Position numbers and translations under genes: made by a program
DNA from: a virus
Taxonomy: Duplodnaviria > Caudoviricetes
DNA length: 64,000 nt
Direction: 5' to 3' (one strand)
Virus record (IMG/VR): IMGVR_UViG_3300027749_000034
Shown here: piece after piece, positions 45,352-61,307 of the stretch
Layout of the letters: each line of letters begins with the position of its first letter
How positions within the stretch are numbered: position 1 is the first letter of the stretch
Notes under the pieces: model-generated
Databases searched by the model: none
Told to the model about the DNA's origin: nothing
The model's input: only the letters and a program-made list of their open reading frames with translations

Positions 45352-47178
45352 ATGGCAGACATTCCAGTTATACCCGGCGTTTCAGTTACCCCAATGGGGA
45401 TACTCAATAGACCAATCAAAGACATCATTTGTGCTATCCTTTTTGGTGGCATCAATAACATGCTCAAAGGAAATTTACTTTGTGTAAATTTAGACTTGGA
45501 AAAATTGTTAGATGAACCAATTGTTGCAGACATAAAAGCCGAGTTGACAGATCTAAAGAATGAACTCAAGGCCATGGAAGAAGCGTCTGGTATCAAAGAT
45601 GTGCTTGGCCGAGTCAATCAGGGCATCGCTGAAGTTCAAAATCTACTGGCACTGGATGGCTTATGTAAAATTCCACTGAAGTGTCCTCCGATACCCGACA
45701 TCCTGAACATGACCATTGACGCAGAGTTTGCCACTGCCAATGCAATTTTGGATGATATTGGTAGATTAGAAAAACCAAAATTATGTATCAATGGTGCTGG
45801 TGGTCTCAATACTGGTTCATACAATCCCAGTAGCATCTTGGGTAGAATACAAAGCAACATTACCAGACTGGGAACTATTCCTGGTCATGAATTAGACATA
45901 TTAAAAAGACAATTGACACGAGTGACTGCTGGACTAAAGGCCAGTCTCAATAGACAGTTGTTTCCAGATTTCAGACACAAGACAGATTTGACAACAGGCA
46001 GGCCATATGCTAAAGGTGGTGCTGGTGTAATACTGGCCAGTGCCGCTGAACAGACCAAACTGAAGGCCAAGATTGCCGCTGACTCAGCATCGCCTGCAGG
46101 CCTACTGGCATGGCAACAGGTAGCAAACATGCCTGGAGCATCTGCCGCGGATATTCAAGCATCATATCCGCCAGGTGACGCCAGTCTAAAAGATGCAGTC
46201 AACATAGCACAGACTCTGGTAGGTGGAATGAAAAAGACTGCCAGTTATCCTTCCACAGCCAATGGAATTATAAATGCAAACATGTGGCCCGGTGTGTTGG
46301 GTCCAGACATATATGCTATGGCAGTACAGGCAATGAGTCCACAGGACCCGCTATTTGTACAACAAGATCCACTGTATGATTATTGCGGTAAGTTCATTGG
46401 ATACAATGAAACAGTTATAACCGGCGACTCTGCATACAAAGGTGGCGACCCAAAGAAAGATGCTGTATTGAATCCACACAAAACAAACTTTGAATTCAAT
46501 TGGATCGCAGATAGACAATGTTGGGCAGTCACTGGCGTACAAAGCGAGCAAGTGGTAAATGGAAGAAAGGACACTTATCTAGATGCAAATCCAGAAATTG
46601 AATTGCATCGAGGGTATAGTCATATTCTAAGTGTGCCAAGTGCTGACATCAGTGGATTCGTTATGAGTGGCGACTATCCAACAGCAACTAGTACGGCTCC
46701 AGAATTTTTTATATGTCGAGTTGGAAACGATCTAAGGCCACTGATTGCCAATGGCGAAATTGTCAAGTTCAACATGGGACTAAGCAGACTTGAGACATCA
46801 GAAGTATTGGACAATGCCAATGGTTGGCTACCAAGTGAAACAGAACATGCGGGTATTGATGGTCCAGAAGGATACAATCGTAGATTAGAAAACCCAATGG
46901 GTACCACATTGTATTTTTCAGTCGAACAACGACAATACTCGGGTACTGTTCCTCCGCTGTACCCAAGCAAGGACATTTGGTGGTATAATCCAACCACTCT
47001 TATAACACAACAGTGGATACCAGATGGCGAGGCCAGTGGTCAATGGGTTGTAGTATCTGATCAGGATAGAAACAATCATTGGTATGGATCAAGTCCTTTG
47101 CAGAGCGATATAAGTGCAAACTATCTGGCCTACAGTAATCGAAATGGTTCAGTTTTTGGCCTATTAAAATTAATTTGA
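45352..47178 (+). CDS. hypothetical protein (probable virion structural)
   Basis: 608-aa ORF after TAAGTA, adjacent to PAAR and the peptidase. Confidence 0.65.
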   Translation: MADIPVIPGVSVTPMGILNRPIKDIICAILFGGINNMLKGNLLCVNLDLEKLLDEPIVADIKAELTDLKNELKAMEEASGIKDVLGRVNQGIAEVQNLLALDGLCKIPLKCPPIPDILNMTIDAEFATANAILDDIGRLEKPKLCINGAGGLNTGSYNPSSILGRIQSNITRLGTIPGHELDILKRQLTRVTAGLKASLNRQLFPDFRHKTDLTTGRPYAKGGAGVILASAAEQTKLKAKIAADSASPAGLLAWQQVANMPGASAADIQASYPPGDASLKDAVNIAQTLVGGMKKTASYPSTANGIINANMWPGVLGPDIYAMAVQAMSPQDPLFVQQDPLYDYCGKFIGYNETVITGDSAYKGGDPKKDAVLNPHKTNFEFNWIADRQCWAVTGVQSEQVVNGRKDTYLDANPEIELHRGYSHILSVPSADISGFVMSGDYPTATSTAPEFFICRVGNDLRPLIANGEIVKFNMGLSRLETSEVLDNANGWLPSETEHAGIDGPEGYNRRLENPMGTTLYFSVEQRQYSGTVPPLYPSKDIWWYNPTTLITQQWIPDGEASGQWVVVSDQDRNNHWYGSSPLQSDISANYLAYSNRNGSVFGLLKLI

Positions 47179-47203
47179 CAAGCCGATCAAATAAGTATAT
47201 ACT
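47175..47203 (+). promoter_or_regulatory. sigma70-type promoter for tmRNA
   Basis: TTGACA-17-TATACT. Confidence 0.85.
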
Positions 47204-47209
47204 GTAAGT

Positions 47210-47499
47210 TATTGCTGTATGAAGCAAAGAGAAAAGTGTTCTGGACGGGGGTGCGAATCCCCCCAGGTCCACCATAAGCACATAGTTGTCCTAGATGAAA
47301 GAAACCTCTTAGGGCTCTAGTGGGGATTGTGTGCTTTTGATGGGCCTGACCTAGATTCGACAGGGCAACAAGTAACAGAGTGGACAGCACGACAGCGATA
47401 GTCGTAAAAACTAAACAAAAGTAACCGCAAACGACTCACAGTTCGCATTAGCGGCCTAACAGCCACTTAGGGTAAGACATACCTCGTAACAGAAACTCA
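47210..47499 (+). ncRNA. ssrA: circularly permuted (two-piece) tmRNA; tag ANDSQFALAA
   Basis: T-arm plus 3' acceptor CAGGTCC-A-CCA ends at 47274; intervening hairpin; 5' acceptor GGGCCTG...GATTCGAC at 47342 (G3:U70 pair); resume GCA 47427 to TAA 47459. Confidence 0.92.
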
Positions 47500-47526
47500 G
47501 AAAAGGTTGCTTCGGCAACCTTTTTC
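47500..47526 (+). terminator. intrinsic terminator of tmRNA
   Basis: AAAAGGTTGC-TTCG-GCAACCTTTTT. Confidence 0.9.
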
Positions 47527-47576
47527 TTTATAAGTATTTTTATAATACGAACATTATCACACTAAAGAATATATCA

Positions 47577-48032
47577 ATGGCTGAAATATTAATTGCAACA
47601 GAACAAGATAAAAGCGGCACAGATGTGACAATTTATATGGCGCAAACAATTGCCGGAAGTCCGGTGTATCCATTTTATTTAAAAAATTATGCAGAATTAA
47701 TGGATGCAGGTTTGGCTCAATCTCTGCTGTATTCATCAAATCGAACCAAAGCAGTATATGCAACGATTGACAATAAGGTTGTTGGAAACATAGTTTATGA
47801 AATACAAGAAGATGTTTTCAAGTCCTGCTACTTGTTGTTTAGTGCAGTTGACGAAAATTTTAGACAGCGTGGAATTTTGAAATTGATGCACAACCACTTT
47901 GAAGTTATTATTAAAAAACAAGGTGCAAAAAAATTGTACAGCTTTGTCCATGTAGATAATGCGCCCCGAATCGCCAGTTGTGTGGGCCTAGGTTTAGAAA
48001 AGCAATTTTATAAAATGTATAAAGTGTTGTAA
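47577..48032 (+). CDS. GNAT-family N-acetyltransferase
   Basis: AVDENFRQRGI acetyl-CoA motif A; N.P.I...GF-like motif. Confidence 0.75.
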   Translation: MAEILIATEQDKSGTDVTIYMAQTIAGSPVYPFYLKNYAELMDAGLAQSLLYSSNRTKAVYATIDNKVVGNIVYEIQEDVFKSCYLLFSAVDENFRQRGILKLMHNHFEVIIKKQGAKKLYSFVHVDNAPRIASCVGLGLEKQFYKMYKVL

Positions 48033-48072
48033 AAATACAACACTTGACCATTGTTTCCCTTTGTGCTATAAT
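48024..48072 (+). promoter_or_regulatory. palindromic operator abutting a sigma70 promoter
   Basis: GTGTTGTA-AAAA-TACAACAC (48024-48043) then TTGACC-17-TATAAT; ATG 5 nt later. Confidence 0.75.
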
Positions 48073-48077
48073 ACTGT

Positions 48078-60475: not shown

Positions 60476-60497
60476 AACAACATAAGTAAATTTCAAC

Positions 60498-60573
60498 GCC
60501 CTTGTAGCTCAGCTGGTAGAGCACCGCACTTGTAATGCGGGGGTCCCGTGTTCGATTCATGGCGGGGGCACCA
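60498..60573 (+). tRNA. tRNA-Thr(TGT)
   Basis: CCGCA-CTTGTAA-TGCGG, CCA. Confidence 0.95.
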
Positions 60574-60586
60574 TTTTTAATCACCC

Positions 60587-60835
60587 ATGTGGGAATACCT
60601 AGTAACCTTTTTTGCGATCTTTTTACTTGACATTGTTTACACCTACTACTTGCGGTGTGTGGCCAATGACAATGTGTTAGGTGCAAGTTTTTGGTCAATA
60701 GCCTGTTATATTCTAGGAAGTGTGGCAGTTATAAATTACACAACCAATCATTGGTTAATGATTCCAGCCGTGGCAGGTGCGTTTTGCGGCACCTGGGTTG
60801 GAATGAAAATTAAGAAGAAACAATTCGGAGTGTAG
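60587..60835 (+). CDS. small three-TM membrane protein
   Basis: Three hydrophobic segments, G...GTW.G motif and basic tail; stop codon lies inside tRNA-Pro. Confidence 0.7.
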   Translation: MWEYLVTFFAIFLLDIVYTYYLRCVANDNVLGASFWSIACYILGSVAVINYTTNHWLMIPAVAGAFCGTWVGMKIKKKQFGV

Positions 60836-60902
60836 CGCAGTCTGGTAGCGCACCTGGTTTGGGACCAGGGGGTCCAAGGTTCGAATCCTTGTACTCCGAC
60901 CA
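60826..60902 (+). tRNA. tRNA-Pro(TGG)
   Basis: CCTGG-TTTGGGA-CCAGG, CCA. Confidence 0.95.
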
Positions 60903-61100
60903 AGTACCCCGGGCACCTCTGCCCGTTATACAAGAGGGGGATATTAGCAAACCCATAGACGCTACGGTGCATTGGATCTACCGCAAGGCCCATTTACGGC
61001 GACTTGAGAAATCACAAAGGCAGGAACTGTACTGTCTAAATAGAAAAATAGTTGGACGGGGTAACCACCCAGTCTGGGGCTCTTGTGGTGAGAGTAGCCA
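60903..61100 (+). ncRNA. unclassified structured RNA (pseudoknot-like 5' end)
   Basis: CGGGCA/TGCCCG hairpin, GGAC-GGG/CCC-GTCT hairpin, terminal hairpin ending in GCCA. Confidence 0.4.
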
Positions 61101-61102
61101 GA

Positions 61103-61233
61103 CACTTTATAAAAGCCGTTTGAGTAGCTACAATGGAACACCGAAATACTTCTCAATACTAGTCAGTAGAAGGACCGGCCATGAAGAGTAGGGCTACCGC
61201 GAATTCAAGCGTCACAGACGGCCTCTATAAAGT
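61103..61233 (+). ncRNA. unclassified rod-closed structured RNA before tRNA-Gly
   Basis: CACTTTATAAAAGCCGT / ACGGCCTCTATAAAGTG closing stem (15 of 17 paired). Confidence 0.5.
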
Positions 61234-61307
61234 GCGGGATTAGTTTAATGGTAAAACTACAGATTTCCAATCTGTTGTCGTCAGTTCGATTCTGACATTC
61301 CGCTCCA
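61234..61307 (+). tRNA. tRNA-Gly(TCC)
   Basis: ACAGA-TTTCCAA-TCTGT, U73, CCA. Confidence 0.92.

Follow-up and report, generated by a model that had tools for sequence, protein, structure and literature searches.

A putative translation-support island with a predicted RNA-end repair operon, a permuted tmRNA and a tRNA array in an uncultured phage genome

We asked whether the translation-related genes that crowd one part of an uncultured phage genome make up a single coordinated system or a set of neighbours that act in parallel. The locus lies in a stretch of 64,000 nucleotides (IMG/VR record IMGVR_UViG_3300027749_000034; this whole stretch is called the window), which behaves as part of the genome of an uncultured freshwater jumbo phage, with genes mainly on one strand and a GC content of 37–46%. 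Between positions 47,175 and 61,307 the original prediction, made from the sequence alone, had placed a permuted tmRNA gene, a GNAT acetyltransferase, an HD hydrolase, a kinase, a phosphoesterase, an RNA polymerase (RNAP) omega homologue and 11 CCA-encoding tRNA genes, and had read them as one counter-defence system that senses stalled translation, resupplies and repairs tRNA, rescues ribosomes and suppresses the stringent response. All of these gene identities were borne out by ARAGORN, Rfam, Pfam and PHROGs. The reading that we favour, with a probability of about 0.62, is that of a translation-support island whose parts are neighbours, are partly co-regulated and act in parallel, without being a single sensing machine. 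Defences that cut or block tRNA (PrrC, RloC, VapC-like nucleases, PARIS and the CapRel/FaRel2 toxSAS toxins) are a fast-growing field, and phage answers to such defences are known mainly gene by gene.

The hydrolase-kinase-phosphoesterase operon and its partners in relatives

Within the island, a hydrolase, a kinase and a phosphoesterase form a compact operon (48044–49756) downstream of a palindrome and the promoter TTGACC-17-TATAAT. We infer that this operon is a reduced form of a clade-wide cassette for the repair of tRNA and other RNA ends. Its genes, together with a ligase gene that may act with them, are the following:

48078–48599, + strand: small alarmone hydrolase (SAH), a RelA/SpoT hydrolase-only HD protein, PaSpo-like
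48672–49220, + strand: P-loop polynucleotide-kinase-like kinase
49220–49756, + strand: small binuclear metallophosphoesterase (MPE)
24047–25093, + strand: Rnl2-like ATP-dependent ligase

The SAH is 173 amino acids long overall, has no synthetase domain and matches HD_4 (61.3 bits against a cut-off of 27.2, E = 1.2e-16) and phrog_990 (6.5e-40). Its true start is probably the ATG at 48096, which follows an AGGAG, and the SAHs of relatives align from residue 7 of the annotated open reading frame (ORF). Among PDB chains it matched Rel/SpoT hydrolase domains, MESH1 and bacterial SAHs, including (p)ppGpp/(p)ppApp hydrolases, and it is 49% identical over 154 amino acids to PaSpo of phage SSU5. The metal and catalytic motifs (H...HD..ED...D..N) are kept, with HP, LHDVVED and KLADL..N aligning with Rel and PaSpo. 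PaSpo, from the Salmonella phage SSU5, counters 5/5 toxSAS toxins tested (PMC7229694, Table 1); four of those five toxins pyrophosphorylate tRNA CCA ends, and tRNA modified in this way regains aminoacylation through SAHs (bioRxiv 10.1101/2021.04.30.441581). Judging from the identity to PaSpo and these published assays, the SAH of the window would hydrolyse (p)ppGpp/(pp)pApp or the 3′ pyrophosphate of tRNA.

The kinase (AAA_33, 5.7e-19; phrog_505 polynucleotide kinase, 1.3e-08) has a conserved body that begins at Met 48750. The top 14 Foldseek matches of its AlphaFold2 (AF2) model (pLDDT 93.3) are all the PNKP kinase domain or C. thermocellum Pnk (TM 0.75/0.70), and further matches include PSTK, T4 Pnk, Pnkp1 and Trl1-type kinases. 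Invariant in 28 kinase sequences are the P-loop residues G11, P13, G16, K17 and T19, D36 at the catalytic position, and R119 and R123. The context, with RNA ligases beside homologues, suggests that the kinase acts on 5′-OH RNA ends. We also looked for the kinase in longer, fused forms and found no such protein, which is weak evidence.

Base 49220 belongs both to the stop codon of the kinase and to the start of the MPE (PF00149, Metallophos; phrog_547, 4e-48). The five MPE motifs (DxH, GD, GNH[D/E], H and GHxH) are invariant in 28 sequences, the residues concerned being D8, H10, G54, D55, G80, N81, H82, D83, H116, G134, H135 and H137. The AF2 model (pLDDT 94.2) has Aquifex AQ1665 as its best fold match, followed by SapH, YfcE, GpdQ and MJ0936. 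Because this fold is unlike that of the Pnkp phosphatase, the healing role is read from context: by context the MPE would be a Pnkp-like healer, yet it is not classed with the Pnkp-type phosphatases. The ligase (PF09414, 1.8e-30; PF21189, 4.2e-27) combines a PHA02142 OB fold with RNA_ligase and has RecA-like, gp32-like and helicase genes as neighbours. It is 55% identical to ligases that lie, in 17 related loci, at a median of 2.4 kb from the kinase, and it is a candidate for the sealing partner of the healing enzymes.

Does this set hold together in relatives? The nearest record is a viral contig of 40.7 kb with ~82–89% identity to the window, and a near-identity search of GenBank phages returned only tRNA-sized matches, so a cultured close relative is absent. 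The relatives are IMG/VR contigs, the longest of 357 kb. Four anchored scans yielded 206 related viral loci in 123 dereplicated groups (95% identity), in which neighbour domains were assigned by Pfam; counts anchored on the kinase refer to the 45 groups with enough flank, counts anchored on the SAH to 26 groups, and both to a distance of 5 kb. Around the kinase we found the MPE in 32 of the 45 groups, at least one tRNA in 29, a DSP-type PTPase in 22, the SAH in 18, a TROVE-vWA (Ro-like) protein in 11, a Rnl2-like ligase in 10, omega in 10 and Rnl1 in 6. Around the SAH, the MPE was present in 24 groups, the kinase in 19 and Rnl1 in 13. The loci show at least 14 gene orders, the fullest being PTPase-kinase-MPE-SAH-Rnl1.

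We also compared the near-complete relatives (G002–G006, n = 5; 285–357 kb, 82–100% complete). The tRNA array, kinase and MPE are linked in 5/5, the kinase lying 1.0–6.1 kb from the nearest tRNA every time. The SAH occurs in three of the five, beside the kinase and/or the MPE, and omega in four, 0.2–3.7 kb from a tRNA; only two genomes have both. The zones of up to 10 kb around tRNAs make up only 10–14% of each genome and contain from 3/4 to 6/6 of its features, and 0–76 of 20,000 random placements equalled the observed clustering around tRNAs; owing to shared ancestry and non-independent operon mates, these figures show clustering and not independent events.

Some partners of the kinase in relatives are absent from the window. 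These are the DSP-type PTPase, seen in 117 loci, the TROVE-vWA protein (DUF2828 + DUF7788), seen in 44, and a Band-7/SPFH protein, seen in 23; examples among the related loci are L032:8433-8921, L191:7943-9358 and L180:7180-7977.

What, then, might the SAH do in such a cassette? It could be a classical enzyme that removes (p)ppGpp/(pp)pApp to sustain transcription and translation in the host and leaves tRNA 3′ ends alone, the island being otherwise the same and the place of the gene in the cassette reflecting shared timing. The RelA/SpoT hydrolase motifs and the matches to enzymes that hydrolyse (p)ppGpp and (p)ppApp fit this view, and the HD-alarmone phosphodiesterases of jumbo phages have been read in this way (PMC7824862, section 3.4.8). 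However, in relatives the gene lies between MPE and Rnl1 within repair cassettes, SAHs de-pyrophosphorylate tRNA CCA ends (bioRxiv 10.1101/2021.04.30.441581), and the alarmone and tRNA activities are not exclusive; we regard a strictly classical SAH as possible, at clearly less than even odds. We hold equally tentatively the idea of a multi-lesion repair operon, in which the SAH would have been recruited for tRNA 3′ ends with the DSP-PTPase, the Pnk-like kinase, the MPE and an RNA ligase, while the omega of the array would re-tune host RNAP, possibly making it deaf to ppGpp. If true, such an operon would reverse two kinds of damage, the cuts made by anticodon nucleases and the pyrophosphorylation of CCA ends by toxSAS enzymes, beside a tRNA array that shares its promoter class.

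The neighbourhood could also have arisen by accretion without shared function, with hyperplastic jumbo-phage tRNA arrays that gather accessory genes, homing endonucleases and odd RNAs, an SAH that degrades alarmones, a kinase and an MPE in DNA-end or nucleotide metabolism, and a nearness that is due to ancestry and insertion hot spots. In keeping with this, gene order is highly fluid, GIY-YIG endonuclease genes and GOLLD RNA occur in the same regions of relatives, unrelated genes separate the parts in the window, the best fold match of the kinase (the PNKP kinase domain) belongs to a DNA-repair enzyme, and the stand-alone SAHs of the cultured phages SSU5 and D6 are without repair neighbours. 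We nevertheless consider accretion unlikely. The kinase-MPE pair, often with SAH, PTPase and ligase, outlasts at least 14 rearrangements; its recurrent partners are Rnl1, Rnl2-like ligases and the Ro-like TROVE protein, with no DNA-repair genes among them; and kinase homologues of cultured phages, annotated as polynucleotide kinase, adjoin an RNA ligase (RpAliso, RcXuper and pW2). The kinase homologue of XacN1 adjoins a methyltransferase and a metallophosphoesterase.

tmRNA, tRNA array and the promoter palindrome

The other parts of the putative translation-support island flank the operon or lie several kilobases downstream of it, together with the elements from which a common control had been predicted:

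47161–47550, + strand: two-piece (circularly permuted) tmRNA gene (ARAGORN, Rfam)
47577–48032, + strand: GNAT acetyltransferase, divergent
48021–48072, + strand: palindrome AAAGTGTTGTAAAAATACAACA, followed 2 nucleotides later by the hydrolase-operon promoter TTGACC-17-TATAAT
51499–51777, + strand: winged-helix protein
57859–58018, + strand: leader with a promoter-like site, a 21-codon ORF (57894–57959) and a hairpin with a U-run, directly 5′ of tRNA-Gly; putative attenuator
58019–61307, + strand: array of 11 tRNA genes (ARAGORN, Rfam)
58095–58116 and 58203–58224, + strand: palindromes before the internal promoters of the array
59123–59347, + strand: RNAP omega homologue of 74 amino acids, within the tRNA array (PF01192)

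In the tmRNA gene the acceptor (3′) piece precedes the coding piece, ARAGORN flags it as permuted, and it scores 121.8 bits with RF04321 (tmRNA_permuted, cut-off 47) and 136.5 bits with RF01850 (beta_tmRNA, cut-off 84). The tag read by ARAGORN is ANDSQFALAA, followed by a stop, with a degron end of the ALAA type; the tmRNAs of relatives carry ANDEQFALAA, ANDSVYALAA, ANDEKFLMAA and others. The gene has its own promoter in our promoter scan (TTGACA-17-TATACT, 47175–47203) and a terminator made of a GC hairpin and a T-run near 47503–47527. A permuted tmRNA is present in 5/5 near-complete relatives, with the nearest tRNA at 0.8, 3.9, 9.5, 43 and 111 kb, and lies within 5 kb of the kinase in 5 of the 45 kinase-anchored groups. 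We searched the five near-complete relatives for SmpB (PF01668) and found none; the tmRNA would need the SmpB of the host to function. Of the ribosome rescue that had been predicted, a potential is what stands: the tmRNA looks canonical, and homology and context support it.

In RNA-library contigs from relatives, the segment between the two tmRNA pieces differs (joints 47277 to 47352 or 47401). Because the contigs differ at 47277–47401, this suggests that the intervening spacer is free to vary. Splicing at the joints 47277 and 58410 was considered and rejected, as they look like relatives with replaced interiors. A search for the host by tag peptide in 185,579 species genomes had as its sole match a 3 kb contig of a metagenome-assembled genome (MAG) from a lake. 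This contig (L302; CAIMDH010000093.1, 3040 bases), part of a MAG from Lake Erken, has genes for tRNA-Cys, for a permuted tmRNA with the tag ANDTQFALAA and for tRNA-Trp and tRNA-Ile, and is probably a phage fragment mis-binned with a bacterium.

The GNAT gene (PF00583, 33.1 bits, 7.7e-08; phrog_1249), for which PDB sequences gave no match, adjoins the hydrolase only in the closest relatives and occurs in 1 of the 45 kinase-anchored groups. It is essentially lineage-specific.

The array reads Gly-GCC, Glu, Leu-UAA, Asp, Asn, Met, Ala, Val, Thr, Pro and Gly-UCC; the CCA end is encoded in 11/11 tRNAs, and two strong promoters (58137–58165 and 58244–58272) lie within it. The omega homologue that it encloses reaches 38.5 bits with PF01192 against a cut-off of 26, has the core NRF..LV..A..RAR and aligns with omega chains of solved bacterial RNAPs (7e-06 to 2e-05), one of them named E. 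coli RpoZ. These matches start at query residue 11–15, so the N-terminal end is left uncovered. Bacterial omega binds beta-prime, and its N-terminus forms ppGpp site 1. We found 102 homologues of the phage protein in metagenomes and none among 50,697 GenBank phage records, and a full-text literature search for a phage omega subunit in tRNA arrays returned no paper.

Are these parts under common control? The motif GTTGTA-N4-TACAAC occurs three times in the 64 kb (48026, 58100 and 58208), where 0.02 copies are expected, and the palindrome TGTTGTA-N4-TACAACA precedes three strong promoters, each copy lying 2–21 nucleotides upstream of a near-consensus sigma-70 promoter. Across the window and relatives, 12 of 14 palindrome sites have a near-consensus promoter 2–31 nucleotides downstream, mostly at spacings of ~2, 10–11, 20–22 and 31 nucleotides. 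Steps of ~10 nucleotides fit a site at which a protein contacts a single helical face. An RNA hairpin, with GAAA or AAAA in its loop, was considered as another reading of the palindrome, and the purine-rich loop is on the coding strand at 11 of the 14 sites; the placement before promoters favours a DNA site. The winged-helix protein (HTH_39, 0.005; phrog_4973), which tblastn found in 5/5 near-complete relatives (G002–G006), is a candidate for the protein that binds it. One relative has seven palindrome sites dispersed over its genome, so the palindrome marks a promoter class and no translation regulon. The operator motif that had been predicted is thus real and common to the hydrolase operon and two array promoters, the only copies in the window, and it is absent from the tmRNA gene.

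The transcription layout is similarly divided. Promoters and terminators divide the 14-kb stretch into at least eight apparent transcription units; the promoters at 49753, 51856 and 54064 match the consensus perfectly, and terminators lie at 51017 and 51801. About 8 kb of it consists of genes with no visible link to translation, namely two unknown ORFs, the small winged-helix protein, an S8 protease, small unknown ORFs (one of them hydrophobic and membrane-like) and an antisense methyltransferase. The S8 subtilase (51915–53984) and a 186-amino-acid ORF (50437–50997) have signal-peptide-like starts and are unusual cargo in the middle of the island. Contigs that match at 92–99%, from freshwater and lake metatranscriptomes of four studies, cover the tmRNA, the SAH-kinase and kinase-MPE junctions, 49.8–51.8 kb and the tRNA array; they come from relatives and may include DNA, and show presence in RNA libraries only. 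Gaps in this cover at 46.0–47.1 kb and over much of 51.9–57.0 kb are not interpretable.

The leader before tRNA-Gly has the visible parts of the attenuator that had been predicted, including a terminator-like hairpin at 57985–58012. An alignment with two close relatives shows strong conservation, with ~97% identity in a relative whose flanks have diverged. However, its fold is unremarkable (z −1.9), the terminator hairpin persists in the minimum-energy fold, where the alternative pairing does not form, and the 21-codon ORF has no Shine-Dalgarno sequence. The homologues of the leader are near-identical only, with none diverged enough for a check of the alternative pairing. The leader may be an attenuator or a small-RNA gene.

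The single counter-defence system of the original prediction, in which the attenuator would sense tRNA shortage or stalling, a common operator would join the parts, and SAH and omega would end the stringent response, could draw on the palindrome common to three promoters, on the conserved leader, whose ORF codons can nearly all be read by array tRNAs, and on the hydrolysis of alarmones by the SAH family, but is very unlikely. Against it stand a tmRNA gene that has a separate promoter and terminator and lacks the palindrome, a division into at least eight transcription units interspersed with unrelated genes, an unexceptional leader fold that retains its terminator, a leader that has no diverged homologues and whose ORF lacks a Shine-Dalgarno sequence, SAH and omega together in 2/5 relatives, tmRNAs 43 and 111 kb from a tRNA in two of them, and palindromes before promoters elsewhere in relatives' genomes. 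One integrated system, the sensing of stalled translation and the suppression of the stringent response are predictions that the data do not bear out and that are partly at odds with the layout of the transcription units and with the independent assortment of parts. The co-occurrence analysis that had been proposed as a check came out mixed: the core stays near tRNAs, and the SAH (3/5), omega (4/5), the tmRNA (up to 111 kb away) and GNAT (1/45) are looser.

In the translation-support island that we favour, the array would provide phage tRNAs. The Pnk-like kinase would phosphorylate the 5′-OH ends of cleaved tRNA, the MPE would strip 2′,3′-cyclic or 3′ phosphates, the SAH would take off the 3′ pyrophosphate added by toxSAS at tRNA CCA ends and/or break down (pp)pApp and (p)ppGpp, and the Rnl2-like ligase at 24 kb would seal the ends. 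Together with SmpB from the host, the two-piece tmRNA would release ribosomes that have stalled on broken mRNA or tRNA and mark the products for proteolysis. The omega homologue would join the RNAP of the host, and the palindrome would put the hydrolase operon and two promoters of the tRNA array in one promoter class. The supply of tRNA and the repair of its ends, both part of the original prediction, are backed by homology, the Pnk fold, the MPE motifs and, in relatives, the ligases, DSP-PTPase and TROVE-vWA nearby, and their role is a predicted one. More broadly, the original idea of protected translation agrees with the identities of the genes and with their conserved surroundings.

Several points weigh against the island. 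The nearest folds of the MPE are uncharacterised or general phosphodiesterases, with no Pnkp or lambda phosphatase among its top 50 fold matches. The ligase lies 24 kb upstream of the operon among replication genes, and the tRNA array starts 8.3 kb past the operon, beyond genes with no evident link to translation. In relatives the palindrome is not specific to translation genes. The RNA-library contigs, which may include DNA, do not prove single transcripts. Co-occurrence counts overstate the number of independent events because the loci share an ancestor, and the placement test includes operon mates, which are not independent features. Finally, what the analysis established are the gene identities, the motifs, the folds and the conserved linkage, and the substrates, the counter-defence role, the co-regulation and the roles of the parts are all predictions.

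Structured RNAs in the array spacers

The original prediction had also counted at least four unexplained structured RNAs. Two of them have compensatory base pairs and a third is suggestive, while the other candidates turned out to be promoters with short hairpins or a small ORF. The three spacer RNAs are:

58404–58619, + strand: conserved structured RNA of ~215 nucleotides, tRNA-Glu/tRNA-Leu spacer (fold z −4.7)
60903–61130, + strand: conserved structured RNA of ~220 nucleotides, tRNA-Pro/tRNA-Gly spacer (23 distinct homologues)
59430–59650, + strand: candidate structured RNA after tRNA-Met (fold z −3.0; homologues in four relatives)

The RNA at 58404–58619, whose homologues were collected by profile nhmmer, shows compensatory changes in 13 of 29 predicted pairs over eight diverged homologues and has a long closing stem with a variable interior. 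Its ends and internal loops are conserved, its helices are replaced even in close relatives, and in one metatranscriptome contig position 58410 is joined to 58606, perhaps across a different stretch of sequence; the RNA may be an element of a modular or mobile kind. In the RNA at 60903–61130, 11 of 20 predicted pairs show compensatory changes; the UGUGGUG-like loop of its 3′ hairpin is invariant, and a 110-codon ORF that overlaps it is probably spurious. For the RNA at 59430–59650, some compensatory pairs among five sequences are suggestive of a conserved fold. Rfam gave no match to the array spacers at E ≤ 1.

The remaining spacers looked different. In the spacer 58095–58331 there are promoters together with short hairpins. 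Between the two internal promoters and tRNA-Glu (58172–58305) runs a series of short hairpins with GNRA-type loops (CUGUA-GCAA-UACAG, UUGUA-GAAA-UACAA and CUACAGC-GAAA-GUUGUAG), all with TGTA/TACA arms. The spacer 58706–58928 was tried as a structured RNA and rejected, having no homologues; a 46-codon ORF that has a ribosome-binding site is the better reading. This ORF (58780–58920, tRNA-Leu/tRNA-Asp spacer) has GGAG 6 nucleotides before its ATG, and the loci collected contain no homologue of it. True GOLLD RNA (RF02032, ~201 bits against 150) with an embedded tRNA occurs in relatives, inside their tRNA arrays (L024:896-1360 and L036:18406-18869); none was found in the window.

Comparison with known systems

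Finally, we asked how the locus relates to systems already described. The general idea is published: Iyer et al. 2021 (PMC7824862) described jumbo phages in which tRNA arrays are paired with RNA repair and with alarmone hydrolases, and the locus resembles the arrays with Rnl1/Rnl2 ligases, polynucleotide kinases and phosphoesterases described there (sections 3.4.8–3.4.9). That study places calcineurin-like and HD phosphatases in a few phages and reads ROT/TROVE proteins and HD-alarmone phosphodiesterases as countermeasures to attack on translation. It differs in that the alarmone hydrolase is classed as a counter-nucleotide defence, outside the repair cassette; the words tmRNA and omega subunit have 0 occurrences each in it, and neither the order PTPase-kinase-MPE-SAH-Rnl1 nor the promoter palindrome appears.

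The kinase has the P-loop 5′-kinase fold of T4 Pnk, which with Rnl1 repairs PrrC-cleaved tRNA-Lys, and of C. thermocellum Pnkp/Hen1. As with Pnkp, a binuclear metallophosphoesterase is the presumed 3′-end healer and an ATP-dependent ligase is encoded in the genome. In contrast to T4 and Pnkp, the kinase and phosphoesterase of the window are separate small proteins, fold ranking sets the MPE apart from the lambda/Pnkp subfamily, the ligase gene lies elsewhere in the window, an SAH is added, and no Hen1 was seen. The SAH shares its hydrolase-only architecture and motifs with PaSpo (SSU5), to which its identity is the 49% given above, and with PbcSpo (PVP-SE1) (Jimmy et al. 2020, PMC7229694). Unlike SSU5 PaSpo, which has no repair or tRNA neighbours, the SAHs of the window and its relatives occur with Pnk, MPE and ligase beside tRNA arrays.

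Like the ornate RNAs of the GOLLD/ROOL type, the spacer RNAs are structured non-coding RNAs inside phage tRNA arrays. The tRNA cluster of T4 also holds unexplained stable RNAs. Unlike GOLLD and ROOL, the three RNAs of the window are shorter (~215–220 nucleotides) and match no Rfam family. The huge uncultured phages of Al-Shayeb et al. 2020 reportedly carry many tRNAs and a tmRNA; in contrast to those, the tmRNA of the window is two-piece, permuted and scores as the betaproteobacterial form.

Because the overall concept is already published, the value of the locus lies in the specific cassette and its parts. The newer points are the SAH inside an RNA-repair cassette, omega in tRNA arrays, the promoter palindrome and two or three unnamed RNA families. 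The clade offers a natural, recurrent set of spare tRNAs, healing of 5′ and 3′ ends, a hydrolase of the CCA-depyrophosphorylating family, ligases and tmRNA, from which we would predict that SAHs in phage repair cassettes act on tRNA. Beyond the systems compared here, the locus brings up a phage-encoded RNAP omega and, in tRNA arrays, a minimum of two new families of structured RNA.

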